Assembly: GCA_017499595.2 (NCBI GenBank)
Contig: CM039002.1
Span: 372,001 to 436,000 of the forward strand
DNA: 64,000 nucleotides
Direction: 5' to 3'
DNA from: Psilocybe cubensis
Lineage: Eukaryota
Below, piece after piece: positions 5,900 to 38,066 of the stretch (the first letter of the stretch is position 1; each line of letters starts with the position of its first letter). The notes beneath the pieces are model-generated. The model ran no database searches. It worked only from the letters and a program-made list of their open reading frames with translations, and had not been told where the DNA came from. The position numbers and the translations under genes are program-made.

Positions 5900-6769
5900 A
5901 TGTTCAAACTCACTATCGCATTCGTCTCTATTGTCCTCTTCCACGGCGTGTTCGCCGCACCGGTTCTCCTCACCACTGCAAATTCTGAGGCTACTCACGC
6001 CGCGATTAGAAACCGTATGCAAACAATCAGTGTCTTTGCGAGATAACTGACATATTATGGCGCTGTTCCAGGTGGCCTCTTGGGTGGCATTGATGCTGGC
6101 ACCATCTTCGAGGATCTCGACCCCGAGCCCAGACAAGAACCTGGACTTCTCGGTTCGTCCGTTGGATCCCTGCCTCCCACCTCTGGTGCTCCTGTCGCCA
6201 CAACCAGGCGCAGAGCAGTTTCAGTTGCGGGGGCCTTCGATAACTTTTTAAACAACCTCCTCGGTGGCACACAGGACCAGGGCTCTTCTCAGAGGAGGGA
6301 AGACGCTCTGCCTTTCTCTTTCGATGGGCTAACCGCTGCGCTTGGTGGCTCTACTCCTAGCAATGTCGAGTCCCCGTCGAAGAGACAACTTTTGGGTGAT
6401 CTTGTCGATGATGGTCAATTGGATAACTTGCTTGGTCGACAGATTCTCGGTCCCGTCGTTGCTGAAGCTGGTGAACTTGTCGGCCAGGAATTGACACCTC
6501 CTGCTGGTGAGGATAGGCGCGCACTTGTCGATACTCTCACAGATGCTTCGGATGAGGACAACGGTGATGACGAAGATGGAGACAACGACGACGACGACGA
6601 CAATGGGGAAGACGATGGTGGAGACGACGCCGGCAATGACGGTGACGATGGTGCCCAAAATGGTGACGACAATGGTGAAGATGGCTCAGACGTTGATAGT
6701 CGAAGCAATGCCGCCTTGCCAGTCGTCCCTGGCTTCGAGACCTCTGGTTCTCCGATTACCAACTTGTAA
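5900..6769 (+). CDS. Secreted acidic low-complexity protein with repeated basic (Kex2-like) sites
   Basis: Signal peptide MFKLTIAFVSIVLFHGVFA, one intron (~6015-6071), then the 6080-6769 ORF frame with LLG repeats, RR/KR sites and a D/G/E-rich tract. Confidence 0.75.
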
Positions 6770-14124: not shown

Positions 14125-14476
14125 TAGACGAGATCCTCCAAAACTCGTCTCTTCGACGGTGACTCGACATTGCTAGGAATAGTGCCGCCAAGCGTGGCGG
14201 TTAGTGCATCCACTGAAAGAGAGAGGCAGAGTCTCTTCCCTCCTCTGAGAAGAGCCCTGGTCCTGTGTGCCAGCTTGCAGCGACAGAAGCATCGAAGGTG
14301 TGCGGCAAGGGTCCAACGGACGAACCGAGAAGTTTAGGTTTTAGCGTCAAAATATGTCAGTTATCTGGCGAAGACACTGATGGCTTGCATACGTTTTGTA
14401 ATCTCAGCGTTTGCAGCCCGAGAATTTGCAGCGGTGAGGAGAACCGTGGAAGAGGACAATAGAGACGAATGTAACT
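14125..14476 (-). pseudogene. Degraded inverted copy of the 5900-6769 secreted-protein gene
   Basis: Reverse complement shares TTCGTCTCTATTGTCCTCTTCCACGG, intron sequence (ATCAGTGTCTT..AGATAACTGACATATT), CTTCTCGGTTCGTCCGTTGGA, GGCACACAGGACCAGGGCTCTTCTCAGAGGAGGGAAGA and CCTAGCAATGTCGAGTC.CCGTCGAAGAGAC with 5917-6390. The start codon is lost and there are internal deletions. Confidence 0.88.
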
Positions 14477-15034: not shown

Positions 15035-15845
15035 TTATATTTCTCGCTGGGTAAAGGCCATCTCTCGTTGAACTTCAGTCTGTACACACAAGTTCAATGA
15101 TGGAATTGTATCCATCTGACGATGCGCACTCACAGGAGTCAATGTTCTGTTGAATATATCCATTCCACGAATCATTCCGTTCCATTGCGATCCGCCGACA
15201 TTCTGGTACTTGGTTCTTCCCAACACAACGTATTTCTGAGCCAAGAGGTTATGATCATGATTATAAGGCATGAAATAAATGCTTACGGTGGGTGGATTGA
15301 AGATCTGAGCTTTAATGGTATAATTGAAAGTCTGTTGAACGCCGTTCAGGTAAACATAGAACTGGGTTCCATCCTTAGCAATTGCAAAGTGGAAATCAAC
15401 GTTAGGTCCGGGTGCGGTTATCTGGGTGTAGACGTTGTCGCGACCCTGCAGATTGTTGGTGGTCATGTACGCGAAGTAAATCTGCATGCTGTTGGGCGGA
15501 AAAGCGACGTTGAAGAGTGATGTATCTACATCAGAAGACTCGATGGACACAAAAGTGCGCCACCAAGTTTGATCAGAGGGGTTAAGCCACCCCAAAATCG
15601 TGAAGGAGCCGCTGAGATCGAGGGTAGGGTAGAGCGTGTCATTAACAAAGCTAATATCGGGTTGAGTTTTGAATGCCCCTCCTCTTCAAAGCAGGTCAAT
15701 GAGGAGACGTGATTTTTAAATTAAGTTAAGCTCACCCCATCGACAGTCGGAGCGGAAAACTCCAGGTAGGACCTGGAAATGCCTGCGCGGCAACACTCAC
15801 AGCACTGTTGATAGCAACAAAGATTGAGAGGAGATATGCGTGCAT
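15035..15845 (-). CDS. Secreted concanavalin A-like/LamG-fold protein, paralog A
   Basis: Signal peptide MHAYLLSIFVAINSAVSVAA. LamG-like pattern SFTILGWL...FHFAIAKDGTQFYVYLNG...VVLGRT...WNGMIRGMDIFNRTLT. Introns match paralogs B and C. Confidence 0.72.
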
Positions 15846-17431
15846 TGCAGACGACACAGTTGAGAAGAGGGAGGGAAACAATCCGAAAGGTATAGATGCA
15901 TTGGAATAGAATATTATGGGTGTTTTAATTGTGCGGTTTTGATGACGATGAGGAGAATCGGCTTAAACTACTACATACCAACCTTCTTGATTAACCGAAA
16001 TTGAATGACCTTGGTCAACATTCTGTGATATTAAATCAACAGAATGGAAAGTCTGTCTAGCTTCTCCAAGTGTATTGGGATTAGGCTAGAATGGCTAGCT
16101 CATACCAACACTGCAACTTCTAGAGTCGTATCTTGAATCTACTACTTATCCACATTAGGGATGACGGGAGGGCGCTTATCCCTGAAAGCATTAAGCGAAT
16201 AGTGAAAACCATTAGCTGTATTGTAAATGAAGCGATATGAAAAGATACACTTATTCTTCCAACCGGAAACTCGAAATAGCTAGTAGCTGCTATCCTGAGC
16301 CGGCAACAAACAATGTCCTGTTATGACTCTAGTCAGTACTCAATACTTCGCTCACTTGGAGAAAATCCAAATATCTATCGGACGTCAGACTAACTAAATC
16401 AAACGTTCAATTTCCATCTATTCTCACTCCAACATCATTCTCCGAACAAACTTACAGTGTGTAAAACACGGCACAAATATAAGTGAATCCTAAATGCTTG
16501 AATGAGTTTGGTTCTAATCCACGACGTTCATCCGATGAGAGCTTTTGTTATTTGATGTTTAGTAAAATAACCCTTATTCCATTTCCATATCACTTGTCAA
16601 ACTACGAACCGCTGACATGATGGCTCACATGTAATGAAGATTTATACACTATCTTCCAAACGGGCGCTCAGGTAGGACTAGGCATAAAAAATGTTCGTTT
16701 GATCTCTCTACCGAGGGGATATACTTGACTTGAGGGACCATTACACTTTAGGGTATGAGCGTCAAGCTAGAAGATCGAATGAAACGATTCAAAGCAGGTA
16801 TAATATAGCTGGAGACTTACTATCATGTGAGTTTTAATGAGACGTCTGGTTCGAAATATAAATTAACCCGCTCCCAAGTCTCAGCCGTGGTCCCTTTGCG
16901 TGTTCAATATGATGTTGAAGTCATTCATTTCGCTCAGTGTAGTGGCACTGTACCCAGCGCTTATACTCGCGTATTCACATTACAGTGACCTGGGAGCTAG
17001 CATTATCGTATGTCAGCCTTTAATAGCGTTTTAACGTCTTTTCCTCATTCGCAATTGCAACTCAGAGCCACCACGCAATGCGGGACAGTTTGAATAAGTT
17101 TGATTTATCGGATAGTTGGGACGAACTGGTATGTTTTTTCTTCCCTGTAGAGGGTTGTTTCAATTCAGGCTGAATAATATGTATGTCAGATTCCTCGTCA
17201 GCAACAGGCAATGGGGCCTACTAGCAGACCAGTCGGAAATCAAAGCTTGTACAGAAACGTCACACCACGTAGAGGCAACAAGAATCCCCCTGGGAACGGG
17301 AATTGCGAGAGAAATAAACAATGCTAGCTACAGAAAGTAGACATAGTCGGTGTTAATGTAATCAATGTCGCCTGAAAAAGAAGGTTTGATACGACGCACG
17401 TAGTACACGATAATGAAGGCAAAATTTACTA

Positions 17432-19315
17432 CTAAAGAATGTGGACTGTTGAGATGTGTATGTCATCTGGATGGCGCTCATATTGCTTAGTACAAAGAAT
17501 GTCAACTAGGTCGAGTGGCTTCAACGCAGTAGTAGGAGGTTTCGCCATTCTCGACAGGTAGAAAAGGCCGCCTATACATACAAGGTAGAGTATCGATAGA
17601 GAGCCAGGAATAATGAGTTGAATCAACCATCGATCTCGGTTAATTGCCTCTGTTGGGACCAAAAGGTCTTGCGTAGTATTCCCAGACAAAGGTGCAGAAA
17701 AAATGACGGCGCTGAGAGCGGTATTGAGAGTTTTTGTCCACCTTTCACTGTTCAGCGCACAGTCTGCCGTGTCGGGACCTAGCTGAAATCCTGCGAGCAC
17801 CCCGCCTGGACACGAAAATGGAACCAAATCATTGGCGGAACTGCTTGTTGACCACCATGCGGCAATCACATCATCGACAGACCAGGCGACGCAGGAATAG
17901 GGATCAGAGCTGGGACATGGATCAAGGAAGGGATCATTTGGATTAGTGAAAATGATAGGTGTGCTGGGGTTGATTAGCTGAGAACTGGGCACCTGGGACG
18001 CAGATGGCGAGGGATTTAAATGAATGGTATGGTTGCATATGGTGTAAAAGATTTTGCCGTCGGAAGAGACAGTGGCATTAGGAATCGCATCGATATTATT
18101 TCCGGTCCATAAGTATTGGCGACTTGTAACTGAGTTAGACATCTGGGGAAACGTGACGAATCCTCCTGCAAGTCGGACGTTTGAGTACCCTACTGTCCAC
18201 ACGTCCGTTGTACTGAAGTTATACGCTTTCACTCCGGAAGGAAGGGGTGCAAGGCTATTGACGATGTATTGGGAATTTGGGGGTATGATAGAGACATTCC
18301 ATCCCTGCACTAGACCGCAGGAGATTTCTCCAGAGATATGGAATCCACTAGGTCGTGAGTCGACAGCCAAAGTAGTTCTATTATCTTGAACCACTAGACT
18401 TCCATCAAATGCGGCTGACGGTATATGAGGTGAATTTGGGACAACTAACCAGCTGTCCAAGACACCTGCCACAATGCGTTCGTCAGTACTGAAAAAGCGG
18501 GTATCTGCACGAGGAAGAGTAAAGCTATCGGGATAGGTAAATGATACGCGAACGGTGGTTGTACTGTGAAGATCGGGGATGGAGAATCCAACTATAAAAG
18601 AAATAAAAAGGCCTATGGCGATCTGGGACAGCGCAAGGAAGCCAAGCCACCCCACTCCATGTTGAACACCAGGTCTCGTCTTTCCACCGCCCTGCCAAAG
18701 TCGAGATGCACTTCGATACAGCGATTGGGCTGCCGTTATTTGCAAAGCCGCACCTGCCAACGACCCTTCAGCAGCGCTGATGCCCCTCTCAACGGCCAAT
18801 ATAGTAGCATCGTCTCTCCTTCGAAGAACAAGTCGAGCATTGCAAGCAATGAGTTCGGATAAGCCTAGGCTCGCAATGAATGTACCAGCCTTTAGCCAGT
18901 ATTGCATGAGGGTTTGAATGCGGGGAATTATGTGGCCCCTTGGGTCGAGGTTGTCGTGGCATTTGGCACCGTCAGGGCACCTGTAAACGCGGGGAAGAAG
19001 AACATGCCGAACAACAAATATCCCTGAGAGAGTGAGGCTGACCCCTACAACTACCCACAAGCTACACCTGAAAAGAGATATGTCGTCGTGTTTGGGAGTT
19101 CTTGATGCAGCGTTCTCTTCTTGAACGTGATGTTTCGCAGAAACAACTGAAGATGGAAGAGAATTTGACACCTTTTCGGTGTCCCGACTGGCTTGTTGAT
19201 CCTCTCTGTCATCAGGAGGCGGAGATGGCAGCTGATTCGAGGAAGGACTGTAGGGGAGCTCATGCAGAATATCGGGATGCTTCTCAGATAGGTTACGTTC
19301 CTTGGAGGAGGCCAT
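17432..19315 (-). CDS. Intronless multi-pass membrane glycoprotein of unknown family, paralog 1 (627 aa)
   Basis: Long ORF with hydrophobic segments near aa 81-107, 140-160, 222-246 and 565-590, a CPDGAKCHDN loop, and a large N-x-S/T- and Cys-containing region. Clearly homologous to 23313-25190. Confidence 0.8.
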   Translation of the reverse strand: MASSKERNLSEKHPDILHELPYSPSSNQLPSPPPDDREDQQASRDTEKVSNSLPSSVVSAKHHVQEENAASRTPKHDDISLFRCSLWVVVGVSLTLSGIFVVRHVLLPRVYRCPDGAKCHDNLDPRGHIIPRIQTLMQYWLKAGTFIASLGLSELIACNARLVLRRRDDATILAVERGISAAEGSLAGAALQITAAQSLYRSASRLWQGGGKTRPGVQHGVGWLGFLALSQIAIGLFISFIVGFSIPDLHSTTTVRVSFTYPDSFTLPRADTRFFSTDERIVAGVLDSWLVVPNSPHIPSAAFDGSLVVQDNRTTLAVDSRPSGFHISGEISCGLVQGWNVSIIPPNSQYIVNSLAPLPSGVKAYNFSTTDVWTVGYSNVRLAGGFVTFPQMSNSVTSRQYLWTGNNIDAIPNATVSSDGKIFYTICNHTIHLNPSPSASQVPSSQLINPSTPIIFTNPNDPFLDPCPSSDPYSCVAWSVDDVIAAWWSTSSSANDLVPFSCPGGVLAGFQLGPDTADCALNSERWTKTLNTALSAVIFSAPLSGNTTQDLLVPTEAINRDRWLIQLIIPGSLSILYLVCIGGLFYLSRMAKPPTTALKPLDLVDILCTKQYERHPDDIHISTVHIL

Positions 19316-20047
19316 GGTGTAATGGCCGTTAAGAGAACTATATTGTGCAGATCACTGTCAAAATCATAGACTGTCTGTGAATTGGTAATTTGGCGCACCA
19401 AAAGTCGTATAGAGCAGACTGGTCGCCCGCAGATGATGTGAAGGGAGAATGCTGCTGGTGTTCGGTTCCTTCATATGTATTGCATTTCTGCAACGGCTGT
19501 GTGCAGAAATAGTCGGTTTCATTTGGACATGTCACGCTTACGGCAAACGACATCCTTTACCTGTGCAGATTTACTATTTAGATGCCATTGCTTCCAGAAG
19601 TCGCATTGCATAATGCAGCCTAGCTCATGGGAGCCTCATGTTGTGGCCACACCGATTCGTGCGTCTAATAATAATCCTAAGAATGCAGTAGATCTCTCTC
19701 CTGGGCAGATACGCGACTAAGTTCTTCCAAATCCTATTACCACAGTCAAATTTAGTACTTACTTGATGCTATTGTCGTCTGTTTTGATCACGGACTACAA
19801 CCATTTGCAGAGAGTAAACTGCATTTGACGCTTGGACGCATTCAGTGGAGTCATCGTGAGTGAACGGATCACAGGTGACAGAAACCAGAAAATCATGCAC
19901 GTGGTCTCATGGTCTTATGCGATGAAACCGAAGTCCGACACACGGCAACGCGGCATCTCTTAGAACACCCAAAAGTCTTCCAAGTACGTTTTTAAATATG
20001 AGAACTGATGTCCCTAGATTGGAATATTGCTTATAAGAATGATACTA

Positions 20048-20892
20048 CTATTCCAATAGCGTTGCCTGATACTCCTCCTCAACTTCCGCCTAGGGCAGAA
20101 TTTATTGTTGTCAGCATATCAATGGTTTGATTAACCATGAGTGTACTCACATCATCCAAAGCAAAGTCAAATAGATACACGTCTCGGAGTATCCCGTTCC
20201 ATTGGGACCTGTCAGTGTTGCCATCGAGCCTGGTTCTTCCTAGCACTACTTGTTTCTGGGATGCAACAAACTGAGTGGAACAGACTCGATAGATGTTATA
20301 CAAAGACAATGTAACTCACATTCGCCGGGTTAAAAATTTGACTTGAAAGTGAAATAGAAGACGTTCGGGCCCCGTTCATGTAAAAGGCAATAGCATTTCC
20401 GTCTTTAACCATGGCCAGATGGAATTGAACGTTTGGCCCAGGAGCAACCACCGTTGTATTAATTGCTCCACCACGATTCTGTGCGCTTTGCATCCAGGCA
20501 ACGTTGAAATTCATTTGATTTGGTGGAAGCGCGATTCTGAACAGGGCAGAGGTTGCATCTGGTGATTCAATAGATAGGGCAGCACGCCAGAATGTACTGC
20601 CAATGTCTGAGACAGAGATCCAGCTCATGAGGCTGAATGGCTGAGTCAAATCAATATCAACGAAAACGTTATCGGCAAAACTTGTTGTCCGTGACGGATC
20701 CGCATTTCCTTGACCATTGCTGTAAAAATTGCGTTATGAACGACTCAAAAAATTGGAGTAAAATGGCTCTGCAACAACTTACGCTAGCGTCACTCGAAAT
20801 GGAAAGTACCAAATGGGAGGAGGATAGCTCTGTGCTATGGTTCCATGTATGAGCACAGATGCAAGAAAAACTGCGGATACAATGGCTATCAT
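20048..20892 (-). CDS. Secreted concanavalin A-like/LamG-fold protein, paralog B
   Basis: Signal peptide MIAIVSAVFLASVLIHGTIA, then WYFPFRVTL, FSLMSWI, FWRAALSIESPDATSALFRIALPPN, FHLAMVKDGNAIAFYMNG and VVLGRT..SQWNGILRDVYLFDFAL. Confidence 0.75.
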
Positions 20893-21619
20893 TGGAATTA
20901 ATTGGTTGAGGTCGACTGCAAGCCTTTGTACTTATACAACAAAAATTCGGAGCGACATTGCCAATCCATACTAACGCCACATCCTACTACAAACTAGTAG
21001 CTTCGGAACGAAACTCTTATCAAAGACATATCGCGGTGTGTACTCTGCAAGCCCAACCATTCCTGCAATAGAAGCATACAGCTCGGTAGACGAATAGAGC
21101 CTAGTAAGCTCGTTGTGAACTATGACAATCAAAAGGACATTTATGAAATACAATCAATTAAACGGGAGTCATCAAGCTTCGCAGACTTCCATTTTCTCCT
21201 AACACAAGACGAGTTTTAAAACTTTTATACGTCATTTGACGTGGATGACAGGTTGAATTGCTTGAGAAACACATAGGTAACAAAAGGCCGTTTCTTGAAA
21301 ATCTCCAAAAAAGAGAACCTCAATCATCCAGGTAATATGCCACAACTAATTTAAAGATTGCCGGTAGTTGATTGATGATTCTTCGGATTAGATTGCGAAT
21401 CTCAATTACCTCGTAATAACTTATTCGGTTTGTAATACAAAAAATCAACAACGGAAAGCATGAATAGGATAGTCGCACTTTCACATATAGATTAGCAGCT
21501 GTGATTGTTGAATAAAATGCGAAGCAGCGGCCTCATACGTTTGGATGCACATAAATAGAAAACATTTTTAATTTCAATGGAACGCAAGAGACACCTGTTT
21601 CTTTTACCAAAAATCTACT

Positions 21620-22421
21620 ATGTCGCTGTACGCCACCGCTATTGTGGTTTCTGTTCACCTTTTACTTGGCGTGCTCAACGTTATGGCGCAGTCTACTGGA
21701 CCATGGTATTTTCCTGACCGCTTGACTTTGGCGTTAGTGGTCCATCCAATCACATTAGACTGCTGGTACAAGTGCTGACCAATATACATACCTTTGCGCA
21801 GTAACGGGCAAGGGAACTCCGACCCAACGAGGCCCGTCAGCTTTCTAAATGATACCTTGTGGCGTGCATTCGATTTGAACAAACCTTTCAATTTGACTGC
21901 ACGGCTCAGCGTGTCTGATCAAAGGTTTTGGCGCGCGGCTATATCAATCGAATCCCCACAGGCGACGTCTGCCCTGTTTAGGATTGCTCTTCCACCAAAC
22001 GACATGCGATTCAATCTTGCGTGGATGAGCGGGCCACAGACTCGAGGCGGCGCTTTTAACACTACTGCATCAGCGCCAGCATTGAATACTGAATTTGATT
22101 TTGCCCTTGTCAAAAACGATAGCAGTATTTCCATCAGTATCAATGGCGAAAGGCAGTGGTCTACTCCGTTTAGCTCCCAAATTTTTAATGCTCCGAATGT
22201 AAGCAACTCTTATTGAATCAAAAGCCAGTTTTATATATTTTTTATGCTTTAGAAATCTATTATTCTTGGGAGAACCATGTTGGACGGGAATGCACTCCGT
22301 TCTCAATGGAACGGTGTGATTAGAAATGTCCTTCTAAGCCAGACTCCCCCTTCAGGTGAGATAATGTGTTTAGCACTAAGTGCTCACCGGTCACCTCACA
22401 GCTAATTATTCCAAAGTTTGA
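21620..22421 (+). CDS. Secreted concanavalin A-like/LamG-fold protein, paralog C
   Basis: Signal peptide MSLYATAIVVSVHLLLGVLNVMA, then WYFPDRLTL, FWRAAISIESPQATSALFRIALPPND, SQIFNAP and ILGRTMLDGNALRSQWNGVIRNV. Intron positions match paralog B. Confidence 0.72.
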
Positions 22422-23312
22422 ACAGCCGGACTGGCTGCCATGTCGCAAACAATGAATTCCAAACTTTTGGCGGATGCCACAAGTGGTTTCCGACCGACAC
22501 TGGAAGCTTCGAATAGGTGTTGTTTTGGGTGTTGTCCGCTTGTTTTTACAGTAAAGGAGATTGAGGAATGTCCTTGGCTTGAATACATGATACATCCCTT
22601 TAGGCTCTTGATTAGTTTTACCCAAGTTTTAACTTTTTCCGACGTGACATCTCTGCCGAAAATACCGATTGATTGCTTTTCTGATCCGTCCGCCATTGGC
22701 GTGATTTTTTTATTAAGGCCGATGTTAGGCCGATGGATTGCATCAACATCAACCGACCCTCCCTCGAACCTCGAGGCGTCTTGACACACTTGGTGCGTTA
22801 CCTGGCCCGACGCGCTGCTGACGCAAAATAATAGCAGAAATAGATGCTCTCGCCTGGATATTATGCTCCACAGCCTCGTGTGTTATGGACCTTCAGACTG
22901 GATCTTCTAATTTCTATTGTGAGTCGTGGCTAACCAACAGCACCAGGACAAGGGATCCGAATAGTGTATTCCAGTAACAACAGCTCAGCTGCATCAAGTC
23001 TGCGCGTGTCATTACGGAAGGTTGCATCAGCCGTAGGCACGCACTGCCGCACAATGGATTGGCCGTTATTCATTTTGTCCTCCCTAATGACCTAAAGCTT
23101 TCAACGAATCAACATCCATATTCACGCTGCGCAACGCTCGATGTCATTGAAGGGTTCGTCCTTGAACAAAGACCCGACCAAGCTCACCATGGAGCCGCAA
23201 GAGCCACAAGTACATCAAGCATTGGCTTCCACTACGGTACAGGTACTCAGTATACATAGCCTTGCAATGTGCTACTCTTATTGATTGCGCCATGTTATGC
23301 TTTGAATTTTAG

Positions 23313-25190
23313 ATGGCTCCCAAAAGTATCAAGATGGTAACCCAAGGCCATAGCGAGAAACGCCCATCTAGCGGCTACGAAATCCCAACGGCCTCGTCCT
23401 CAGGCAAACTTCCAATCTCGACGTTCGATAATACAACCTCCCCACCAAAAACTAATCACTCAACTTCGCCAAATCCAATCACTCCCCCCCAAAGCAGCAA
23501 GTTGATTGATCATACAGTAATGCATTCTCTACGGGATACCACCTCTCCTATTATTTGCGCCTTTTTTGTTATCATTGGAAGTGGCCTAATGGTGGCGGGA
23601 ACGTTGGTCGTTCGTCATTTTTTCCTCCCGCACATCTATACGTGTCCCGACGGTGCCACCTGCCATGACAATTTTGACCCCAAAGGGAATATCATTCCAC
23701 GCCTTCAAACCCTAATGCAATATTGGTTCCAAGCCGGGGTCTTCATCGCAAGTTTAGGGCTATCAGAGCTCATTTCTTGTAATGCCCGTCTCGTCTTGAA
23801 AAAACGGACCGATGTCACGATACTGGCGGTGGAAAGAGGCGTCAACGCGTCAAAAGGGAAGATGAAAGATGCTGCTCTGCAACTATCTATCGTCGAATCA
23901 TTATATTCCATTGTGTCTCGACTTTGGCGCCGTGGCGACTATATCAGTCCCAAAATCCATCATGGTACTGGTTGGTTGGGTGTCCTCGCGCTGTCCCAAG
24001 TTGCTGTGGGAATCTTTATCTCATTTATCGTCGGATTCTCGATCCCAGATTTGCAAAGTACGACCACTGTCAAAGTTCCCTTCAGCTATCGTAGCATCAT
24101 CACCCTCCCGCGAGCGGACAGGCGATATCCCAGCATTGACGAACGTGTTGTCGGAGGTGTTCTAGACAACTGGTTGATATTGCCAAATTCTGCACATAGG
24201 TCACCGACGGCATTTGACGGGAGTCTAGCCGTACAAGACAATAGAACTATTCTGGCCATCAATCCCCAGGCCAGTGGATCTCACATTACGGGCGGCCTAT
24301 CATGTGGCAGACAAGGGTGGAACGTGTCGAACATTCCTTTCGACTCGGACTATTTCTCTGACGATCACGCTGCTCTTCCTTCTGGATCGAAAGCATATAA
24401 CATTAGCGGCAAGGATTCATGGGTGGTTACATATTCCTACTTTCCTCTAGCCGCATCTCCCGTTTTATTCCCAAACCCAAACTCCATACTGATATCCAAC
24501 TCTACCATCAATCGTCAATATGTATGGGCGGGAAATACGAGCAAAGTGATCCCAAATGCAACAGCGTCAGAAGATGGAGGAATTTTTTTCACGGTCTGCA
24601 ATCAGACTGTATTTATGGACGACCTTCCTGAAATCTCAGAAGTCAACACCCAGGCCATCAACCCCAGCCTGCCTGTAATTTTCTCCGACACTAATGATCC
24701 TTTCACCCTTCCTTGCATCAGTTCCGACCCCTTCACTTGTGTCGCTTGGTCTGTCGATCGCATTATCTCGTCTTGGTGGCTGGTCAACGCTGTATTCTCA
24801 GATTTGATTCCCTTTTCCTGTGTGGAAGGGATGCTCGTCGCGTACGATGGACTTTCGGACACTAACAACTGCGCTCTAAACTCTGAAAGATGGCATAAAA
24901 CTCTCAACATGACGTTGAGTGCTCTCATTTCCGCCGCACCCCTGTCCGGGAACCTTACTCAAAATCTTTCGGTGACTACAGAGGCTATGAACACCCACTT
25001 TTGGTTAATTCAGCTCGTCCTTCCAGGTGCCACAATGACTCTCCTGCTCGCGTGTCTGTCATATATGTGGTGTCTCATTCGCAAGGGCGATGTGCTTTAC
25101 AAGCTTGACCTACCGGAGGTGGTGGCAAATCAGAAAAAACTCGAAGTCAATGAAGGCAATACACGCACAACGACAGTCACTGTAGAGTAG
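23313..25190 (+). CDS. Intronless multi-pass membrane glycoprotein of unknown family, paralog 2 (625 aa)
   Basis: Long ORF sharing CPDGAxCHDNxDP, PRxQTLMQYW, SLGLSELIxCNARLVL, FISFIVGFSIPDL, AFDGSLxVQDNRT, CVAWSVD and CALNSERWxKTLN with 17432-19315. Confidence 0.82.
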   Translation: MAPKSIKMVTQGHSEKRPSSGYEIPTASSSGKLPISTFDNTTSPPKTNHSTSPNPITPPQSSKLIDHTVMHSLRDTTSPIICAFFVIIGSGLMVAGTLVVRHFFLPHIYTCPDGATCHDNFDPKGNIIPRLQTLMQYWFQAGVFIASLGLSELISCNARLVLKKRTDVTILAVERGVNASKGKMKDAALQLSIVESLYSIVSRLWRRGDYISPKIHHGTGWLGVLALSQVAVGIFISFIVGFSIPDLQSTTTVKVPFSYRSIITLPRADRRYPSIDERVVGGVLDNWLILPNSAHRSPTAFDGSLAVQDNRTILAINPQASGSHITGGLSCGRQGWNVSNIPFDSDYFSDDHAALPSGSKAYNISGKDSWVVTYSYFPLAASPVLFPNPNSILISNSTINRQYVWAGNTSKVIPNATASEDGGIFFTVCNQTVFMDDLPEISEVNTQAINPSLPVIFSDTNDPFTLPCISSDPFTCVAWSVDRIISSWWLVNAVFSDLIPFSCVEGMLVAYDGLSDTNNCALNSERWHKTLNMTLSALISAAPLSGNLTQNLSVTTEAMNTHFWLIQLVLPGATMTLLLACLSYMWCLIRKGDVLYKLDLPEVVANQKKLEVNEGNTRTTTVTVE

Positions 25191-26540
25191 TAAATTTCTC
25201 GCCAACGTACATTGCTTCCCTGGTATTGTGCTACATCTTCGGCCATTTGAGTAGCTAATATCCAGTGTAGTACCGCCTGCGTTTCGCTCCTGGCTTGCTT
25301 AATCGACTCGAGGTAGATACGGTGAATGACTATCCACCGGCTCAGATTCGCATATGAGCCTGGCAGCCCCATGATGCGAGATATCTCAGCTTATGTATTC
25401 TGTACTGCATTTTTAGGGAATTGTTGATAATAACTCACCTCTAGTACATCTAAAGGGACACCAACTCAGTATTATTATCTGATGAGATGCACGACATGGC
25501 CGAGATCATGAAAAGCAGGGCAAGTTGCTCATCGACGGTTCTCAAATGGAACATCATTGAGCGGAGGATATACTCCAACAAAGAAGCAAACTGTTCAAGT
25601 ATCAGCATTCGGTAAGACGTTGCTTTAGAACCTCCCCAATCGCATGCAGTGCAGCATATTCGCTGAACCCCTCAGTATGGACTTATCAGTAGAATCTCAC
25701 AGAATAGATATTCAGAAGGACGTCCCAAAAAGAAGCATCCAGCATTAGATCCCTTGAGTGATAGAGATGCCAAATTGTGCTCTGTAAAAATAAACTAGCT
25801 CTGATTTCTCGTCTGCAAGGTAGTAACAGCAGTGAACTGGAATTTGGCTCACTTACGGGGAATACCAAAGTTGGGCGACGACATATTAGATCTTGCAAGA
25901 CGTTGACCGAGCCCAATAGTGCGGCCAGGGATGGATTTCAAACGTCAATGTATGTTTGACCGTTGCGAACAGTACATAGATAAGGACATCTTGATATAAA
26001 TATGTTTCCTTGATGATTCAGTTCTCGAAATGTCAAGTTGGGGTGTGGCAAATGCATGAAGATAAGCCCCTGTTCGGCCTCAGAGAAAGGCAATGCCGCC
26101 ACGACCTGCAAGTACAAGTAACATTGAACCTCAGTTTATGCTCCGATTTGGCTCCGACATATGGCGCAGTAACTTCATCAGTCTTCACGGCGAGCCAAGA
26201 AAGTGAACGCGCGATAAATACAATGGTAAAATGATTAAATCTCTTCGCCATCTATTTCTCCTTGCGGCGGTGTAGCCAAAATTTAGCACGACATTAATAG
26301 CTGAGAGACTGAAGGTCGTCAGGCTCTCGGAGGAATCCTGTATGATGGCGTAGAAAGCAAAAAAAAACGTATTGATCGATTCAAGTTGCACTGGGTCTTC
26401 TTGACATGGAAGAATACTTGAAGCTCCATATGATTCTACGAGCCATGAGGTTATCAGTCTTAATCCTGTTAGATCATACAGGGTAGTGTTTCAACTTCTT
26501 TGTGTGCAACTTTCCCCCAGTTTCTGGCCTCACTTTGACG

Positions 26541-29253
26541 ATGGCACATATGTGGAATGAAGCTAAGAATGTGGTTGTACAAGGTGGTACATTTGTGGCT
26601 CAAACGGTTCGCCCAAGTACCGTTGTGATGTGTATGTTTGCTGAAGTGTTTCTGTTTCAACTGGACACATTCTCAGGTTGAGCACTCGCCGTACATATCG
26701 AGCGCATTCAGCATTAATGTGTTTCCTCGTATCTTTCGGGCACAAGCGGAAGCTTTGGAAGATACTACTGCTTCATCGGCCAAGAAGGATTTCTCTAGGC
26801 TGGGTCCCATATTTCCTGAGCCCCTCGTCGATGTCTACGGCCGTGACGAATACCTCGAAGACCTGGTGTTAAACAAAATTCTAGCGCAATTCGTTTCAAA
26901 ATCAGAAAATAAACGACACGTAGCCATCAAAGGAGGCCACGGTATAGGCAAGACGACAGTTGCAAACAAAGTTATTCGGGATCCTCGCATCGTCAAGTAT
27001 TTCGGGAATGCAAGGCACTGGGTTAGCTGTCGAGAAGCTTCTTTTATTGACAATTGTTTCAAGGGGCAAAAGTTGCTCGAATATATCTCCAGGAGCCTCG
27101 GGCTGGAGCTTACAGCATCTAACAATCTCCTCTACGACGTAAGATATTTTCTCGAGACAAACAATGTCCCTCGCATCATTATCTTCGACAATTTTGAGAC
27201 CATGTGGGGAGCCATTGAAGCAGGAGAAGGAGTGGGGAGTATCTTGAAAGCCTTAGCGCAGCACACCCAGGTCCTCATGGTTATCACAACTCGCTTCATA
27301 TATCCGCCCGCTGTCCACCTGGGAGTGTCGTGGCATTCCTTAGACACTTTGAGCCCACTCTCTTTGGACGCATCAAGAGATTTATTTATGAGCATTTGTC
27401 CTCAAGAATCTATCGATAAATACCTAGACGAGCTCCTTCTGGCAGTTAACTGTCTACCTCTTGCTATTGTCCTCATGGCGTCGACGGCACACGGATCGTT
27501 CACGACATACAGAATTTTGGAAAGATGGAGGAAAGGCCTTCAATGCGTAGCCCCAGACCGAAAAATGATTCCAGGTGACCCCGTAAAGCACCTCGGACCC
27601 TCAATTGAAATGTCGCTCGAAGGCCCATTGCTGAAGCATCATCCGGACGCAGTCGTACTCCTGAGGATAATTGCGGGCCTTCCTGGTGGCATAAAGGTCG
27701 CAAACCTTCAACAAATTGTTCCTGGAATACCGAGGGTAGATGAAGTGCAAGAGATTCTCCAGCAAACATACCTGATATACGAAGAAGACGGACTTACACG
27801 CGACCCCGAAGATCGAGTTCTCCAGATGCATTCCACCATTCGCAAGCATATGTTAGAGAACTACCACCTCGATTCAGAACATGAACGGAATATCCAGAAT
27901 TTCTACTTCAGACTGATTCACGAAGCCGGAAAAGATCCTGGAGCCAAAGATTTTCTGGCTTGTGCTCGGCGCCTATCCAAAGAGGAAATCAACGCAAAAA
28001 GTATTCTAACTGGAGTCTTGAGGGACGAGGCCAATGAGTATCAGGATTTCGTAGCAGCAATAACCGTCGCAATGGACTACTGCAACTATCTTATATGGAA
28101 CACTCCCAGCACAGATATAGCCGAGAAAACCGTCGATCTGCTAAAGAAACGACTGCCTTCAGGGACGTCAGTGTTGTTATCGCCAATGGAAAACTTAAAC
28201 GCACATCGGAATAGAGTCGCAGGGCAATGCTCCCGCAATATTGGTTCAGAGCAATTGTTTGCTATGGAACAATATCCACTTGCACTGCTGCATTTAGGCA
28301 AATTACAATCTCGATTGTCCCGCTACGGGGAGTCAAAGAAGACTTTCAACCAATTGTTACAACATTGCAATCCTGTGGAGCATCGGAGCCGGACCGCGGA
28401 AGCTGAATTCGAGTTGGCTCAGATCTATCGCATCCAGGGTGATCACGAGAAGGCATTGGAGCTCTTTTACAATGTATACAGTCGCTCAGGAGACGAGGCA
28501 CGCAGAAGGGCAGCCGCCCAACGAGGGATTGCAATTGTACACTTCGATGCAAATAATATTGCTGAAGCATTGGAAGCATTGAACAAGAGCAAACGTATTT
28601 TTCCGGAGAGCGACCAGGCATGCCAGGCCGACTACAAGCTCGGTGTGGGAAGAATACATAGAAACCACGACCAAACGCTCTCGATCAGCCTCTTATCCGA
28701 GGCAAGAGATTATTACACTGAACATGGACCTCGTCGAGAGGCTGCGATAACGCTGTATCAGAAGTCCATCGCACAGTATCTGAAGGGCGAATTCGATGAT
28801 GCTGAGAGAGGATTAAATGACGCATTTGATGAATTCAGGCCTCTTAGAAATGACGCGCAAATGGGATATTGCGTTTACCACCTAGCTTTATTGAACATGA
28901 AGCGTAGGAGGTTGCGTGACGCCTTGTCGCTGTTCCGCCGCGCGGAGAAGATGTTTGCACACATGGATAACAAGTTGATGGTTGGATTATCGTTGAAGGG
29001 GCAAGGAGACGTGTTGACATCGCTCTTTCGAATACAAGAAGCGGCAAACGCATACGATAAGGCTGATACTCTGCTAGGCAGTGTGAGGTCAACGGAAGCC
29101 ACGACTGCCTTGAAGAACATTCAACATACGCGTTACGCGATGCAATGGTACATCACCTTGGGCGTGGCATTTGCAGTCCTCTTTACATTGGCCCTTTTAT
29201 ATACCACTCAGACCACCAGTGTGGACATTTATGGGTACATACATCGTTTCTGA
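26541..29253 (+). CDS. Fungal NLR: short N-terminal motif + NB-ARC (STAND NTPase) + TPR repeats + C-terminal hydrophobic helix
   Basis: Walker A GGHGIGKT, Walker B IIIFDNFE, LPLAI (GLPL-like), MHSTIR (MHD-like) and helical TPR-type repeats. Exon 1 (26541-26606, MAHMWNEAKNVVVQGGTFVAQT) joins the long ORF in frame through a GT-AG intron at 26607-26676. Confidence 0.88.
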
Positions 29254-29854
29254 GAGTGCGTATGTCTTTGTAACAATGATAGATCGCATGAAACTCGCCT
29301 TTATAGAGTACAGATGTTTCGCTATTTGGTATTTTTTCTTTATTTTTGTTCGCCGCCTAATTCAATTGATTTTTCAGGTAAAGCCTCTTGACGATACCTC
29401 TGCACGTATATGTGAGTCAGGCTGCCTCTACTCGATTCACTGATGGAAGGTTCTTTGTGTAGTTGCACCTGTCAGCTGTCCTGTATTCCCAACTTTAAAA
29501 AGCAAGGATTACACTGCGATAACTTGACTGGCATGAAGTTGACGTCGAAGTTGAAGAAGAAGAGGGGTACTCAGTAGCAGTTCTCACGGTTGTTGTTTTT
29601 TTACGAGATTACCAAACAGCCCTCAGCAGAGCCAGTGGCAGTGCCAGCGTTGGTGAGTCAATGACCGGTCAACGTTTGATGGGTCAATGACTCGTGATGG
29701 GGTGATGACTAGTCATTGACTCTGAGGTGACTAGTCAATGACTTTGTAATCACGTGATGACTGGCAACGGTTTTGTGACTTGGTCATCTAAGGTGACCGT
29801 TATCTGATGACTGATTATGTAAAGAAATCAAGTCACGTTACAGTTGACCAGTCA

Positions 29855-30718
29855 CACGTCGGGGATTTCCGAATATAAGACGCACTTTTATGTAGAAACC
29901 CAATGTTAGTCGTGAATATTGAATACCGTACAAAGATGGATGAATTTCTTTTCCTTAAACTGTGAATAAATGTGTATGAATATTTCTTATGCCACATACG
30001 GGATCAAACTGTAAGAAAATATGCAAGAAATGCTTGACCAACATGTAAGATTAACTTTTAGTGTGACAGTGGGTACTGAGCGGCCGCTCAGCGGGCACTG
30101 AATACGAGTATGTACTCGTATGTCAACTGGAGGAAAATCTGTAAGATTTTCCTCCATGTTGATTTCTAGTTAATCTGTAGGAATTTCTTCAACTTTTTTA
30201 TTTATTTTACCTGTAAATATCCATGTATGATAAACTTTTTGCCCAAATGAAAAATTATTTTGCAGCGATTCTGCCACTCGACATAGACAAATAGATAAAA
30301 GTTAATCTTACATGTTGGTCAAGCATTTCTTGCATATTTTCTTACAGTTTGATCCCATATGTGGCATAAGAAATATTCATACACATTTATTCACAGTTTA
30401 AGGAAAAGAAATTCATCCATCTTTGTACGGTATCACCGCTGGCGCTCTTACATATTTTCAAAGAAAATAAGACCCAGTAATTATGTTTCCTACATTTTTT
30501 TGACGTATTTTATTGGAATATAGGCTTCGGGCTTCCCTAATTTGGTAACCCTGGACTCTATATACGAGAAAAATACGTCAAAAACCAATAGGAAACATAA
30601 TTACCGATACATATTTTTCTATCAAATATGTATCAGCGCCAGCAGTGTATTCAATATTCACGACTAACATTGGGTTTCTACATAAAAGTGCGTCTTATAT
30701 TCGGAAATCCCCGACGTG
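29855..30718. mobile_element. Foldback/MITE element with CAC...GTG termini and 3-bp TSD (TCA), CACTA/CMC-like
   Basis: About 70-bp perfect inverted repeat beginning CACGTCGGGGATTTCCGAATATAAGACG. TCA is duplicated at 29852-29854 and 30719-30721. An uninterrupted copy of the target repeat lies at ~30741-30785. Confidence 0.88.
29926..30430. mobile_element. Tc1/mariner-pogo-type MITE with long TIRs and TA TSD
   Basis: About 135-bp near-perfect TIRs beginning CCGTACAAAGATGGATGAATTTC, flanked by TA at 29924-29925 and 30431-30432. Confidence 0.9.
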
Positions 30719-31115
30719 TCAATTGATGGGCATTGACCGAGTCACGTTACAGTTGACCAGTCAATTGATGGGCATTGACCGAGTCATGACTATGGTGACT
30801 AGTCATGGGGTGTCATTGACTAGTCAATGACTTTACCATCGCTGAGAGCCACGCAGTGTGTACACGGCGGGACCTTCGCCACTGTTTTTTTGGCGTCGAT
30901 CGGAGTTACAAATAAATACGTTTAGATTTACAAAATAAAACCAAATTTAATACTGAAAATTAGCATCCGTCGGCGATGTGTTTAGCCGCGTTAAAAATCA
31001 CAAAATAACCAGTGCGTCAATGAGTCTCTGTTTTATAGCTTCAAATCCACTTCCTTACCACAGTCGTGTTCTGATTCTTTTTTTTTGTGGCAGCTAATTT
31101 GACGGCAGCCTAATA

Positions 31116-34100
31116 ATGGTCTTCGGCATTGACCCTGCTGGTTAGTGACATCACTCTCGGTCCACCTTACTACTCGGCTGAATTAAGAATAGTCGTTCAA
31201 CGACAAGTTGTACACGGTCAAACACTCTATTATTGCCGGGTCTGTCAAGATACAAAAGGTCGCCAAAAACACCACCTCAATGAGCACTTCAACACCACAA
31301 AACACCAAACAGCTCTGCAGGCATTTCATACCAAAGAGAAATCCTCTGCTTCTTCACAAACCTCGTTGCCACCGGTTAACAAGTCCCTTTTGTTAGAGGA
31401 CGCCTTACGTGCAATTCTTGTGTCTGCATCTCGTCAACCACACCAGCCTTTGTATCCTGCCAATGACCCTTGCCTTTCTAGGGTCTCGGCTGCACCTTCT
31501 TCAACCACTTTGTCGACGGTCTCTCCACTCACCAGGATTGACTGGAATCTATTCAACGATGATGAAATTATGTCGGATCCATCTCCCATCGACTTTGCGT
31601 CTGCCCAAATATGTCAAGCTACTCTGGATTTTCTAAATTCTAATAACGAGAGTGATGGATCTGATGATGGTGGTGGCAGTCCTCCGCTTTCTGAGAGTAG
31701 CAATGAGCAAGCCAATTCAGGTGTGTAACGTCTAAATAGCGCATATTGTTTGAGTCCTTAACTTTTAATCAGACACTGAACAAGTTGATAATGAATCTTT
31801 GCCCCGAAAACGTATGCGCGGTATTCACACCGACCCGGCTGAAGCTCGAAAATGGTATCTGTGGATTGATAAAATTGTGAGTCTTTGCCTGCCATCGGTT
31901 AGATTTTCTGCTCAATCAATAAATCAGACTTGTTCTCTTGATGTTTTGATGCACCTTCCACGATCACTATTTTCACGTCGTCAGCTGGATTTATTTCTCT
32001 GGCTACTGCGTATCAATGGCGTCAACGATGTGCCTAGCGTTAAGGCTATGCAAGGCATTAACAAGGCATTGCAGAATTTGTGTGGAATTGAGACGAAGGA
32101 GTACAAGGGCAAGCTGGGCAATGTATACTTTGTAAATTCTCTGTCTCAAATTCTTGCCCAGGTATGAATCTATATGTTACAAATGAATACTTTTGATTTC
32201 TAACCAATCTGAATAGGAAATGTCTAATCCTCAAGTCCGACCGTTCCTTTACTTCTATCCTGAAGATACGGGCAAATCGATTAGCGAAACCTATCAAGCT
32301 TCGGGTTGGCTGCGTGAAATCAATCCTGAGGATGGTACTCCAATGATACGGCTCAATAATAATGATTTTTTCATCTTTGAACCAACTATGCTGATTGATG
32401 GACGTTGCTGCATTCCTATTCAATGGTTTCTCCGAGAAGGTGTATTTTATGCCAAAGCCTGGCTTATGGAAGATACTCCTAGTGGTTGGGTTGTGTCCGA
32501 AGATCGCGAAATCAAAATCACGCAAAGCCAATTGCTAAAGAATTTTATTCAGTTGTCAAAGGATCACTTGTTGTATAACTTGTCACACCCTTCACGAATA
32601 TTTGGTATGGACTATATTTTATATATTTTATTCAATTTCTTATAAGTAAACAGGTGTGCGATCCATTCGGGGCCTGGGCTGTCGAAATGGACACGTACAG
32701 ATCCTACTATTGGCAATCGTTGGCGTGTATTAGCAAAGGGATACCGAGTCTATTCTCTGCCGCTATGGATGTACTGTGACGATACGTCGGGAAACCAGTC
32801 CAAGAAGTGGAATAAGCACAACAGCTACCTATTTATTCTAGCTGGTCTTCCTCGCAAAAAGAGTTCACAAGAATACAATATCCATTTTCTATGCACTTCA
32901 GATATTGCGCCACCTCTAGAAATGCTTGATGGTGTGGTTGATCAACTTCAGTAAGTTGTCACTATCTTATATTTGCTGCACATATTCTAATCATTTTAAC
33001 TTTAGATTGGCTCAAAAACATGGTATTTGGGTATGGGACTGTATACACAAAGAGGCCGTTATGATTTTTCCACCTGTATTTGCACTTCTGGGTGACAACC
33101 CTATGCATAGCGAGTTTGCTTGTCATATTGGAATGCAAGGGAAATATTTTTGCCAGATTTGCTGGGCCAAAGGAGTTGACAGTCAAGAATGCCCACACAA
33201 AAATCTTCCACATGACAGTTGTGCTCGACCCAACTTTCCTACCCTTTCAATCCATAGTGATGTTGATTCTGAAGATACCTTCACACGGCCTTCTCACAAA
33301 CGGCGGAGGTACAAGGAGTCTATGGAGTCAATGCTTCGAAGGGTTAGTGATTTTATAAAGGTGCGTAAAAGTTGTTTTATAACAATTTATATTTTAATCA
33401 CCTTTGATTCTAAGATTGGCAAACCGCGTCGCAAGAAAGAGACTATGGCTACTCTTGACTCTTTTTTGGAGCAAGCTAAGATGATTGGCACAAAATCAAA
33501 ACTTAGAGCTGCAAAAACGGAAACTGGCATCAAGGATGTTTTCCAGGACTTCTTTATTGAAAAGCTTTTCAAATCTTATAAGGGAAAAGTTTCTACTCAG
33601 GCAAAGGAAAAAGCTCTTAAAGCGGCTGTCGATAAGCTTCCTGGAGACATCAAAAGTCCCGTATGGAAACTTGGTGCGATTGAAATATTTTGCTTTAATT
33701 TACTAGCTAAATCTATATTCCAGGCTTGGATCCTCATCAGGACACTCCCGTCAAAATTCTGCATGTTGTATTGCTGGGTTTCGTTAAATATTTTTGGAGA
33801 GACCTAGTTCAAAATCAGGTTACTCCTGCTAAAAAGCAAACTTTGATTATTCGTTTAAACAGCCTCAGTGTGGCAGGTCTAGGTATACCCACATTAAATG
33901 GCTCCACACTAGTGAACTATGCCGGGTCACTAACTGGTCGCGATTTCCGAATTATTGCTCAAGTAGCGCCATTTGTCATCTACAACATGGTTTCTCAGGA
34001 GGTTTATGATGCATGGGTGTCCCTATCTACGTTAGTTCCAGTTATTTGGCAGCCAGCAATCTCTAACATTGATGAGTACCTGGTGCGTCTTCATTGTGTC

Positions 34101-35530
34101 TTTCTTTAAATTGTTTTATTAAATTAAATCATGTTTTAGCCCAGATTAGAGGCCGACATCAAATACTTTTTGTTGAAAACGGCAACATGGACCTGCGCGT
34201 GGTTTAACAAAACCAAATTTCACATTATTCTTCATCTTCCAGAACATGTCCGTCGGTTTGGGCCAGCAATATTGTTTGCCACGGAATCGTTTGAGTCATT
34301 CAATGCTATTATCCGTGCAAAAAGCATTCACAGTAATCACCAAGCACCTTCACATGATATTGCCCGTGGCTTTGCGCAAGGCAATCGGATTCGCCATCTT
34401 CTTAGTGGTGGTTTTTTTCTTCCACAAGAGCTTTATCAGTCTTGGAAAAAGGATCCAACAAATGTGGCTAATTCAGAGTGGCGCACTGCTGGACCTGGAG
34501 GTCTTCACCTTATTGATGCTCCAGACTCAACACCAGCTAGCTATTTGGGACTGCAGAAACCTGCTGCCAGTAAGGCTGGTAAGTTATATTTACAAATCTA
34601 TACTACTAGTGAGCGGTCTAATGCAATGGCCTAGGTTCATGCAAATCTAATGGCACAGATCCTCAACCATTTCATCGCACATTATGTGGCCAAAAGCTTC
34701 CCAACATTGTGCTCAATACTGCAGCCAGCCAACAACTGTATGTAACCAATTCCCAGGTCTATCTGAGAAACGAGGATCTATGCACCATAGGACAGTTTGT
34801 CATTGCCCAAATTCATCCATCCCAGCCGCCTCTGATAGGGTGTGTTCGAGAGATCTTGCAGCAGGTTGGCTCTCCAAACCATCTTCAAAACCGGCCCGAT
34901 GGTATTCTTATTCAAACAGCTTTACACCAACCGCCGTCGCACATATTGCCTGCTGGACAACTGCAGCCAGTTTTTATGCTCCGTCTGATTCTTCAGCAGG
35001 AATGGTCCTTCATTCCGTGGAGTTGCCTTCTTTGCACCGTAAATACTCAACATGACTGTCAACGTCATGGATGCCAGGCAAATGGGCTACAATACATCTA
35101 TCAAGAGCAAATACAAACTGATCAGACTAAGGCAACAATACTGCATCAAAACTCATTGGATGATATGCTCCTCCTCAATATGTGTCAAATGCGCGATGCT
35201 GCTCATCTCCAAAGTTTTCACCTCCACTCTGCCCCGTTAAACGAAGATGCTATAATTCAAAGAAGTGTGGCTCAAGCCATTGTTCAACGGAAGGTAGGAG
35301 AAGCCTCCCAATCAAGTACTTCCAAACCAACCAAAACACCAACAGCCGCCTTGAGACAACATGCCCAGAGCCCCTTGGGCACCCCTACTCTAGCAGCCAC
35401 ACCTTCTGGGGGTGTCAGTTTGCCTCAACATGCTTCAGCAGGAACATCTTCTGGAGGTGTTAGTTCACCTCGACGTAGCAGGCAAGCATCTGTGGTATAT
35501 CCAGGTCAAATAACATTGGACTTTCGATAG
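31116..35530 (+). CDS. CACTA/CMC-like DDE transposase, multi-exon, probably decaying
   Basis: N-terminal CxxC...H...H zinc finger. Motifs YCDDTSGNQSKKWNKH, LLGDNPMHSE, DPHQDTPVKILHVVLLG, LTGRDFR, KFHIILHLPEHVRRFGP..FATESFESFN and a C-terminal NTQHDC..HGC. Confidence 0.82.
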
Positions 35531-35583
35531 AAGTAAAACCATACTGTATTTATTTACTAGAATTCTACAAGAAGAATAGCAGA

Positions 35584-38056: not shown

Positions 38057-38066
38057 TAAACAGATC

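Follow-up and report, generated by a model that had tools for sequence, protein, structure and literature searches.

A 14-kb interval of the Psilocybe cubensis genome holds two copies of a module in which a gene for a secreted LamG protein lies beside a gene for a membrane glycoprotein with four transmembrane helices (4-TM). Our leading interpretation, held tentatively and at slightly less than an even chance, is that the two products form a surface recognition pair resembling cwr-1/cwr-2 of Neurospora, with a LamG protein replacing the PMO. An NLR gene and a third LamG gene complete the locus and probably act separately from the pair.

Organization of the Locus

The locus occupies positions 15035 to 29253 of the 64-kb stretch of P. 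cubensis DNA that was analyzed (the window). All six of its genes were confirmed as real, and NCBI P. cubensis records are identical (100%) to three of them (Table 1). The preliminary description had counted three LamG, two TM, and one NB-ARC-TPR genes in about 14 kb, with each TM gene directly downstream of a co-oriented lectin gene; both the inventory and the arrangement stand, but its label of "intronless" does not fit TM2. A GT-AG intron (23243–23312) immediately before the TM2 ATG is spliced in RNA contigs X10 and X11, so TM2 is not strictly intronless, and the extension listed in Table 1 could begin at an in-frame upstream ATG and cross this intron. Both TM genes are transcribed. In X10 and X11, which come from one study, the three lectin genes are uncovered and the NLR appears in scraps, a pattern that carries no weight on expression. 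Each lectin has a signal peptide and three introns at equivalent positions; the last exon of lectin C is compatible with two models (a 46-nt intron with a stop at 22421, or a 479-nt intron with a stop at 22977). The 11 short ORFs tested in the intergenic gaps and at the margins of the locus gave no Pfam match, and a repeat/transposon-like block begins at 29.8 kb of the window.

Table 1. Genes and gene-model features of the locus, in window coordinates
Feature	Position	Strand	Description
Lectin A	15845–15035	−	217-aa secreted LamG/ConA-like protein, A subtype; model identical to NCBI P0006
Lectin A introns	15735–15684, 15286–15236, 15133–15080	−	Gene model
TM1	19315–17432	−	627-aa 4-TM glycoprotein, CWR-2-half architecture; ORF; transcribed (RNA contigs X10/X11)
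Lectin B	20892–20048	−	Secreted LamG, ~223 aa, B/C subtype; directly upstream of TM1
Lectin C	21620–22421	+	Secreted LamG, B/C subtype; directly upstream of TM2
TM2	23141–25190	+	625-aa ORF from 23313; possible 34-aa extension from 23141
NLR	26541–29253	+	880 aa; NB-ARC and TPRs; NCBI P0011
NLR exon 1/intron 1	26541–26606/26607–26676	+	22-codon exon, 70-nt intron

The Lectin–TM Pair Is an Old Duplicated Unit

The module occurs head-to-head in the window, lectin B being followed by TM1 and lectin C by TM2, with 727 bp between the divergent lectin genes. Lectin A is of another subtype, and no TM gene follows it. TM1 and TM2 are 53% identical, and the paralogs are old and intact, with pS values of 0.79 and 0.85 (saturated) against pN values of 0.26 and 0.29. 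In Gymnopilus dilepis, the locus tags of a B/C-subtype lectin and of a TM homolog are consecutive (CVT26_016007/CVT26_016006), and both genes are assigned to a 49,841-bp contig; their linkage is inferred from the tags and the equal contig size rather than from the DNA. The pairing is thereby represented by three diverged copies in two genomes. Lectin C is 59% identical to both lectin B and the G. dilepis protein (P0010), and lectin B is 58% identical to the latter. In the lectin tree the three lectins that neighbor a TM gene group together, separate from the remaining four (support 100/100), and lectin A groups with Galerina proteins and P. cubensis 0005595 (100/100). Searches of listings of openly accessible literature found no publication on the pair.

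The main competing explanation is an old linkage without functional pairing. Neighbors in an ancestor of Psilocybe and Gymnopilus would have been co-duplicated by an inverted segmental duplication, with the NLR alongside in a dynamic region near transposons. We consider this unlikely, although several observations fit it. One duplication and one retained adjacency account for all three pairs, the repeat/transposon-like block lies close by, and the pair is seen in two genomes only, where related agarics can keep neighbors that do not interact. The TM family also extends beyond the detected range of the lectin family, with TM homologs named in seven agaric genera and lectin matches in three only, in a lectin search that was word-limited. 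The preliminary description had named TM homologs lacking lectin or NLR neighbors as evidence against its proposal, and this was seen in part: the one distant homolog with readable DNA (L001, ~30% identity; 1/1) has neither within 10 kb on each side. Against mere linkage, both genes have stayed intact in both copies through saturated synonymous divergence, the TM-adjacent lectins are exclusively of the B/C subtype, and a linked partner is known for the family that the TM protein resembles. A complex prediction for lectin C (24–214) and the TM2 ectodomain (240–565) scored 0.00 in two runs made without alignments or folded controls and has no weight either way.

The Membrane Protein Resembles One Repeat of CWR-2

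TM2 has helices at residues 77–107, 127–164, 220–243, and 561–589, leaving an ectodomain of 317 aa (~244–560). The AF2 model has four membrane-length helices and a pLDDT of 80.7 (89.5 in the ectodomain). Across 32 aligned members of the family, loop 3 contains 2.49 sequons per 100 aa, the small loop 1 is 7.5% Cys, and loop 2 is 13.8% Lys plus Arg, which sets the topology; the cytosolic loop is conserved (45% among the six closest members). Neurospora CWR-2 has 1217 aa and 8 TM helices, with small ectodomains ED1 and ED3 and large ectodomains ED2 (164–496) and ED4 (746–1100) of 333 and 355 aa (PMC12135175). ED2 and ED4 set allelic specificity against the PMO domain of the linked partner (PMC12135175). 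One CWR-2 repeat thus matches the 625 aa and 317-aa ectodomain of TM2, and in both systems a gene with a carbohydrate-active fold is linked to a multi-TM gene with alternating small and large ectodomains (~330–355 aa in CWR-2). The tight partner–receptor linkage is found twice in the window and, by locus tags, in G. dilepis, but not at L001. The systems differ in that the partner here is a PF13385 LamG jellyroll rather than a chitin PMO, and in having 4 TM helices and one large ectodomain rather than 8 and two. The present locus is moreover basidiomycete, its function is a predicted one, and no haplogroups were seen in the X8, X10, and X11 pieces.

Searches based on language-model features (Atlas) placed TM2 nearest to DUF3176 (PF11374), DUF3433 (PF11915), and CLZ1_N (PF28351) clusters (0.95–0.98), which have similar lengths (570–830 aa). 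DUF3176 and CLZ1_N clusters scored 0.97; when these were skipped, DUF3433 clusters made up 22 of 30 hits (best 0.95, 183/256 features). TM2 is DUF3433-like by these features without a Pfam DUF3433 match. Pfam HMMs do not confirm membership of the TM family in DUF3433 (0/32 members at E ≤ 1) or DUF3176 (1/32, E = 0.049). The clusters are mostly ascomycete, and the TM family would be an agaric branch below Pfam thresholds. No solved structure was found for TM2 by sequence. The full-length fold search returned generic four-helix bundles only (best Z 10.3) and no Foldseek match at E ≤ 0.001; the ectodomain alone gave a best Z of 2.3 and no Foldseek match, which is not proof of a new fold. A scan of viral contigs for the TM protein yielded 0/39 candidates.

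Deep haplogroups were not seen: the listed pieces of X8, X10, and X11 differ by at most ~3.5% from the window, in a search that finds near-identical DNA only. Measured against a single control gene (Lon, 0.62%), TM1 in X10 differs by 2.95% of nucleotides (~5-fold; Fisher p = 1e-8), and TM2, at 0.68%, is no more variable than Lon.

The NLR Is Membrane-Anchored and Probably Signals Separately

The NLR has the features used to recognize fungal NLRs, an NB-ARC domain (E = 2.5e-07) with an intact Walker A motif and C-terminal repeats (TPR_12, E = 1.4e-18). Its description as membrane-anchored was borne out by hydropathy, which places a hydrophobic C-terminal segment at residues 848–866. Across the NLR clade the C-terminus scores at least 1.7 in 11 of 18 members, and a majority of the complete homologs carry an extra hydrophobic segment ahead of NB-ARC. 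A lumenal NB-ARC-TPR part was considered for this clade but is not supported: 79 sequons were observed against 58 expected in 16 homologs, and control spacings gave 62, 74, and 85 against 81.

The N-terminus carries a candidate Agaricomycete amyloid-like motif that by eye resembles N-termini labeled NLR05/08/22. The Agaricomycete NLR05/08/22/29/44 proteins likewise have a short motif at the extreme N-terminus followed by an NBD and TPRs (PMC9815663), and the N-terminal pattern of the present NLR is like the aligned N-termini of cluster ESK86804 (PMC9815663 supplement). The present clade adds a C-terminal anchor; the word "transmembrane" is absent from the main text of that paper. A home-made regex for the motif matched the 64-kb window once, within the NLR, and had no match in 30 shuffles; no neighboring effector with a matching motif was detected by regex in the window. 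In the published survey, the family that the motif resembles has 0 neighboring effector-side motifs (PMC9815663, Table 1). The argument that fungal NLRs sit beside their partners, on which the preliminary description had drawn, therefore does not carry over to this locus.

That description joined lectin sensor, TM receptor, and intracellular NLR into a single pathway, in which the tail-anchored NLR might guard the cytosolic loop of the receptor. The lectin–TM link gains from the duplicated unit, the G. dilepis tags, and the likeness to CWR-2. The NLR link does not: NLR homologs lie on contigs of 13,891 and 149,901 bp in P. cyanescens and 19,345 bp in G. dilepis, and TM homologs on contigs of 6,174, 33,484, and 49,841 bp, which leaves the three-part pathway unsupported. 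A third P. cubensis NLR paralog is on another contig, and the sister NLR (P0012) has lost its anchor. The membrane anchor shared within the clade is consistent with the pathway, as is the only NLR–lectin link found elsewhere (a second P. cubensis pair, 0005595/0005596, in the same chromosome record), but that lectin is of the A type and no TM homolog was found from that pair. Also in favor of the pathway, an X8 contig joins an NLR-like to a lectin-A-like piece (28829 to 15362, with 44 letters on the short side), and in X8 the TPR part of the NLR is more variable than the NB-ARC part (2.73% vs 0.26%). On balance the single pathway appears improbable.

The LamG Proteins

PF13385 matched lectin A (E = 1.7e-10, 41.6 bits) and lectin B (E = 7.7e-07, 29.8 bits) above the 27.6-bit cut-off; the NCBI model containing lectin C scored under it (E = 1.2e-4, 22.7 bits), and the lectin C exon-2 ORF had no Pfam match. 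The nearest solved sequences are carbohydrate-binding modules, from a bacterial arabinanase (5hon, E = 5.8e-4) and a bacterial sialidase (4c1w, E = 5e-3). These matches are weak and limited to the C-terminal 70 residues; "lectin" here names a fold, with glycan binding predicted at most. A scan of prokaryote genomes for the lectin gave 0/66.

Secreted defense proteins are established in mushrooms. The lectins could accordingly serve outward defense or adhesion against competitors or fungivores, with the TM protein as a self-protection or anchoring partner rather than a signaling receptor. The carbohydrate-binding modules among the nearest structures suit such a role, but we give it little credence; those matches are weak and point to no ligand, and the conservation of the loop on the cytosolic side of the TM protein fits signaling. 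An NCBI record (P0001, 925 aa), whose 23243–23312 intron is confirmed by RNA, merges lectin C and TM2, so that the lectin would serve as an N-terminal ectodomain of the membrane protein. We regard this as highly improbable: with the lectin on the lumenal side, the four helices would be inverted and the glycosylated, cysteine-rich loop would end up facing the cytosol. Lectin B and TM1 are encoded separately, as are the two G. dilepis proteins, and the linker has no homolog in alignments.

Proposed Mechanism and Implications

In the cwr-1/cwr-2-like interpretation, the functional unit would be two genes, one for a secreted LamG protein of the B/C type and one for a 4-TM protein of the plasma membrane that bears a large ectodomain and is a single-repeat counterpart of CWR-2. 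The LamG protein may be released into the wall and engage the ectodomain, either on its own hypha or on one that touches it, by direct binding or by way of a wall glycan. The receptor could then report the contact to the cell interior through the conserved loop and the tail that face the cytosol, the most likely output being the gating of hyphal fusion or of a contact response, as for cwr-1/cwr-2. An ancient inverted duplication would have produced the two copies of the module. Lectin A and the NLR would share with them a recognition-gene island bordering the transposon block, and the NLR would use its amyloid-like N-terminus to signal to an effector encoded at another locus. The specific proposal of a mushroom pre-fusion self/non-self checkpoint, built from a CWR-2-type receptor with a recruited LamG partner instead of a PMO, is one we regard as decidedly unlikely.

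Almost nothing is known of the molecules behind somatic recognition in basidiomycetes, and the first locus, somA of Coprinopsis cinerea, was mapped only in a 2026 preprint (bioRxiv 10.64898/2026.06.24.733965). The present candidate recognition locus resembles somA in belonging to an agaric, in comprising several genes with NLR-like members among them, and in its narrow taxonomic range; somA differs in its kinases, NACHT proteins, LRR gene, and highly divergent alleles, whereas the present locus has neither kinases nor an LRR gene and the compared runs show shallow divergence. In Neurospora, how CWR-1 triggers CWR-2 is still unresolved. If the cwr-1/cwr-2-like interpretation is true, the system would be an easier one for binding and structural work, with a partner that is small and soluble and a receptor of one repeat whose ectodomain is confidently modeled, and a large, functionally uncharacterized family of fungal membrane proteins would gain its first function. 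Were the checkpoint proposal also true, the duplicated pairs would provide two specificities, and CWR-2-like proteins would constitute a receptor family spanning the Dikarya, whose ligands are interchangeable and linked to them in the genome.

Locus organization and gene models

Six genes, arranged as A(-), TM1(-), B(-), C(+), TM2(+), NLR(+), lie between the end of a gene that we take to be Lon-protease-like, a name given from sequence (~13.9 kb), and the start of a repeat-rich block (29.8 kb). ORFs, Pfam matches, and gene models bore out the content first proposed: three LamG genes, two TM genes, and one NB-ARC-TPR gene. The NCBI Psilocybe cubensis records P0006, P0001, and P0011 were 100% matches to three window products (lectin A after splicing), which identifies the window as DNA of an agaric. 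The preliminary description called the TM genes intronless; their ORFs are uninterrupted, but RNA contigs revealed a spliced intron immediately 5' of the TM2 ATG. Both TM genes were covered by contig sets X10 and X11, whose RNA origin was shown by the splicing of five Lon introns. Other features of the window are collected in the table.

Other features of the window
Feature	Position	Strand	Details
Two inverted element copies	5919-6406 and 14127-14471		77-86%; flank F-box and Lon-like genes; no Pfam match; related copy elsewhere abundant in RNA contigs X10 and X11
Nested inverted repeats, MITE-like element	29854-30719		600 bp after NLR; high DNA depth in X8
Outer repeat pair of MITE-like element	29854-29926 / 30647-30719		100%
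Inner repeat pair of MITE-like element	29923-30060 / 30296-30433		99%
Transposon-like block	31117-41100		broken ORFs; low CpG at 34-36 kb
TET/JBP-like ORF	35587-36294		PF12851, 4.8e-05, below cut-off; within transposon-like block
Tandem array	36932-37415		within transposon-like block
Indoleamine 2,3-dioxygenase gene	45811-46896	+	PF01231, 9e-113
SLATT_fungal 2TM effector domain gene	52782-53489	-	PF18142, 1.9e-10; ~23 kb from NLR

Lectin-fold genes

"Lectin" is used here for the fold only and does not imply glycan binding. All three genes encode a hydrophobic N-terminus and share three introns at equivalent places. A word-limited search, whose query still contained two read-through introns, retained 5 of 165 candidate proteins, with source names limited to Psilocybe, Galerina, and Gymnopilus. 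The tree separated two subtypes with 100/100 support and 36-47% identity between them: B, C, and P0010 from G. dilepis (58-59% identity among them), and A, Galerina P0008, P. cubensis P0009, and a Logan protein. The last exon of lectin C (window 22356-22977) has two models: with an intron of 46 nt the tail is short, and with one of 479 nt it is closer to the final helix of the other lectins.

TM family and its pairing with lectin genes

A profile search collected 52 TM-family proteins (E<=0.001). Thirty were looked up, and the named ones came from Gymnopilus, Amanita, Leucocoprinus, Collybia, Agrocybe, and Cyclocybe; two further proteins came from P. cyanescens, where one gene lies on a 6,174-bp contig and the other is partial. 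Pfam gave no convincing domain match for the TM protein. Its AlphaFold2 model, built on a 32-row alignment, contained four membrane-length helices (pLDDT 80.7), and the ectodomain modeled alone reached pLDDT 89.5 and pTM 0.88. The distribution of sequons, cysteines, and charge predicts a cytoplasmic N-terminus, a small disulfide loop outside, a helical loop inside, a 317-aa ectodomain outside, and a cytoplasmic C-terminus. This predicted topology argues against the 925-aa NCBI model P0001, in which lectin C is fused to TM2.

The pairs B-TM1 and C-TM2 are inverted duplicates of each other; their synonymous sites are saturated, and all four genes remain intact. The corresponding G. dilepis genes, CVT26_016006 for the TM homolog and CVT26_016007 for a lectin of the B/C type, are each on a 49,841-bp contig, and their adjacency is inferred from locus tags rather than DNA. 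The Psilocybe-Gymnopilus TM clade was supported at 100/100. A metagenome scan for TM homologs yielded one locus (L001) from 114 candidates, where no lectin or NLR match was found in the 21.5 kb around a distant homolog, the surroundings holding F-box, Zn-cluster, and KDZ genes only. Lectin pairing is thus seen in the close clade but not in the single distant case, which had neither a lectin nor an NLR neighbor. A separate L001 gene (6089-5186, minus strand), ~3.8 kb from the TM homolog, encodes an amyloid-like N-terminus similar to that of the window NLR followed by a Pro/His-rich region; it is not an NLR.

The NLR

The window NLR (26541-29253, 880 aa) begins with a 22-residue exon 1 that encodes an amyloid-like motif, continues with NB-ARC and TPRs, and ends in a hydrophobic segment, in agreement with the membrane anchor originally suggested. 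Among 19 proteins from the search, 18 formed one clade at >=40% identity. The C-terminal segment scored >=1.7 in 11 of these 18, several of the rest being incomplete proteins, and a second such segment lies N-terminal to the P-loop in eight members, though not in the window NLR or its sister P0012. Hydrophobic segments flank both sides of the NB-ARC-TPR core in this agaric clade (P0013-P0028). Two cysteines near the C-terminus occur in 14/16 and 13/16 rows and are both missing exactly in the window NLR and P0012, the two without the N-terminal segment; sequons are likewise fewest in these two (1 and 0). The core could conceivably be lumenal, although the sequon test gave no support.

By eye, the N-terminal motif resembles the NLR05/08/22-labeled N-termini in the PMC9815663 supplement, and for this group that survey found no matching motifs in genomic neighbors. 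None occurred within the 64-kb window either. A second pairing of an NLR with a lectin gene is that of P0012 (tag 0005596) and its neighbor on one contig, P0009 (0005595), a lectin of the A type; the two pairs, both in one genome, may share one origin. The P. cyanescens and G. dilepis homologs of the window NLR were on contigs other than those of the TM genes, near which other NLRs may still lie. The proposed three-part lectin-TM-NLR pathway is unlikely.

Polymorphism

In the run index, 9/12 runs contain half or more of the words sampled from the window. Among listed pieces, the divergence of TM1 in X10 was 2.95% (Lon, 0.62%), and that of the TPR region in X8 was 2.73% (Lon region, 0.46%). TM2 and the NB-ARC region were at background. 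Three of six TM1 coding differences changed a residue (among 40 of 344 differences displayed). The pattern is consistent with recognition surfaces under mild diversifying pressure.

Comparison with cwr-1/cwr-2

Atlas look-alikes of the TM protein were DUF3176 and CLZ1_N clusters; with these skipped, 22/30 matches were DUF3433 clusters. Neurospora CWR-2, the protein characterized by DUF3433, is described in PMC12135175 as having 1217 aa, 8 TM segments, and two large ectodomains, through which it is allele-specific for the PMO domain encoded by the linked gene cwr-1. By that published description, the TM protein matches one CWR-2 half in size and loop pattern. It differs from the Neurospora pair in having a LamG-fold partner rather than a PMO and a TM count other than 8, and so falls outside cwr-1/cwr-2 itself. 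The divergence seen here, from a run index that cannot find divergent alleles, is also far from the six haplogroups described for cwr. The lectin(B/C)-TM pair is the best-supported unit of the locus and, if anything, would work like cwr-1/cwr-2, as a variant with another partner and TM count.
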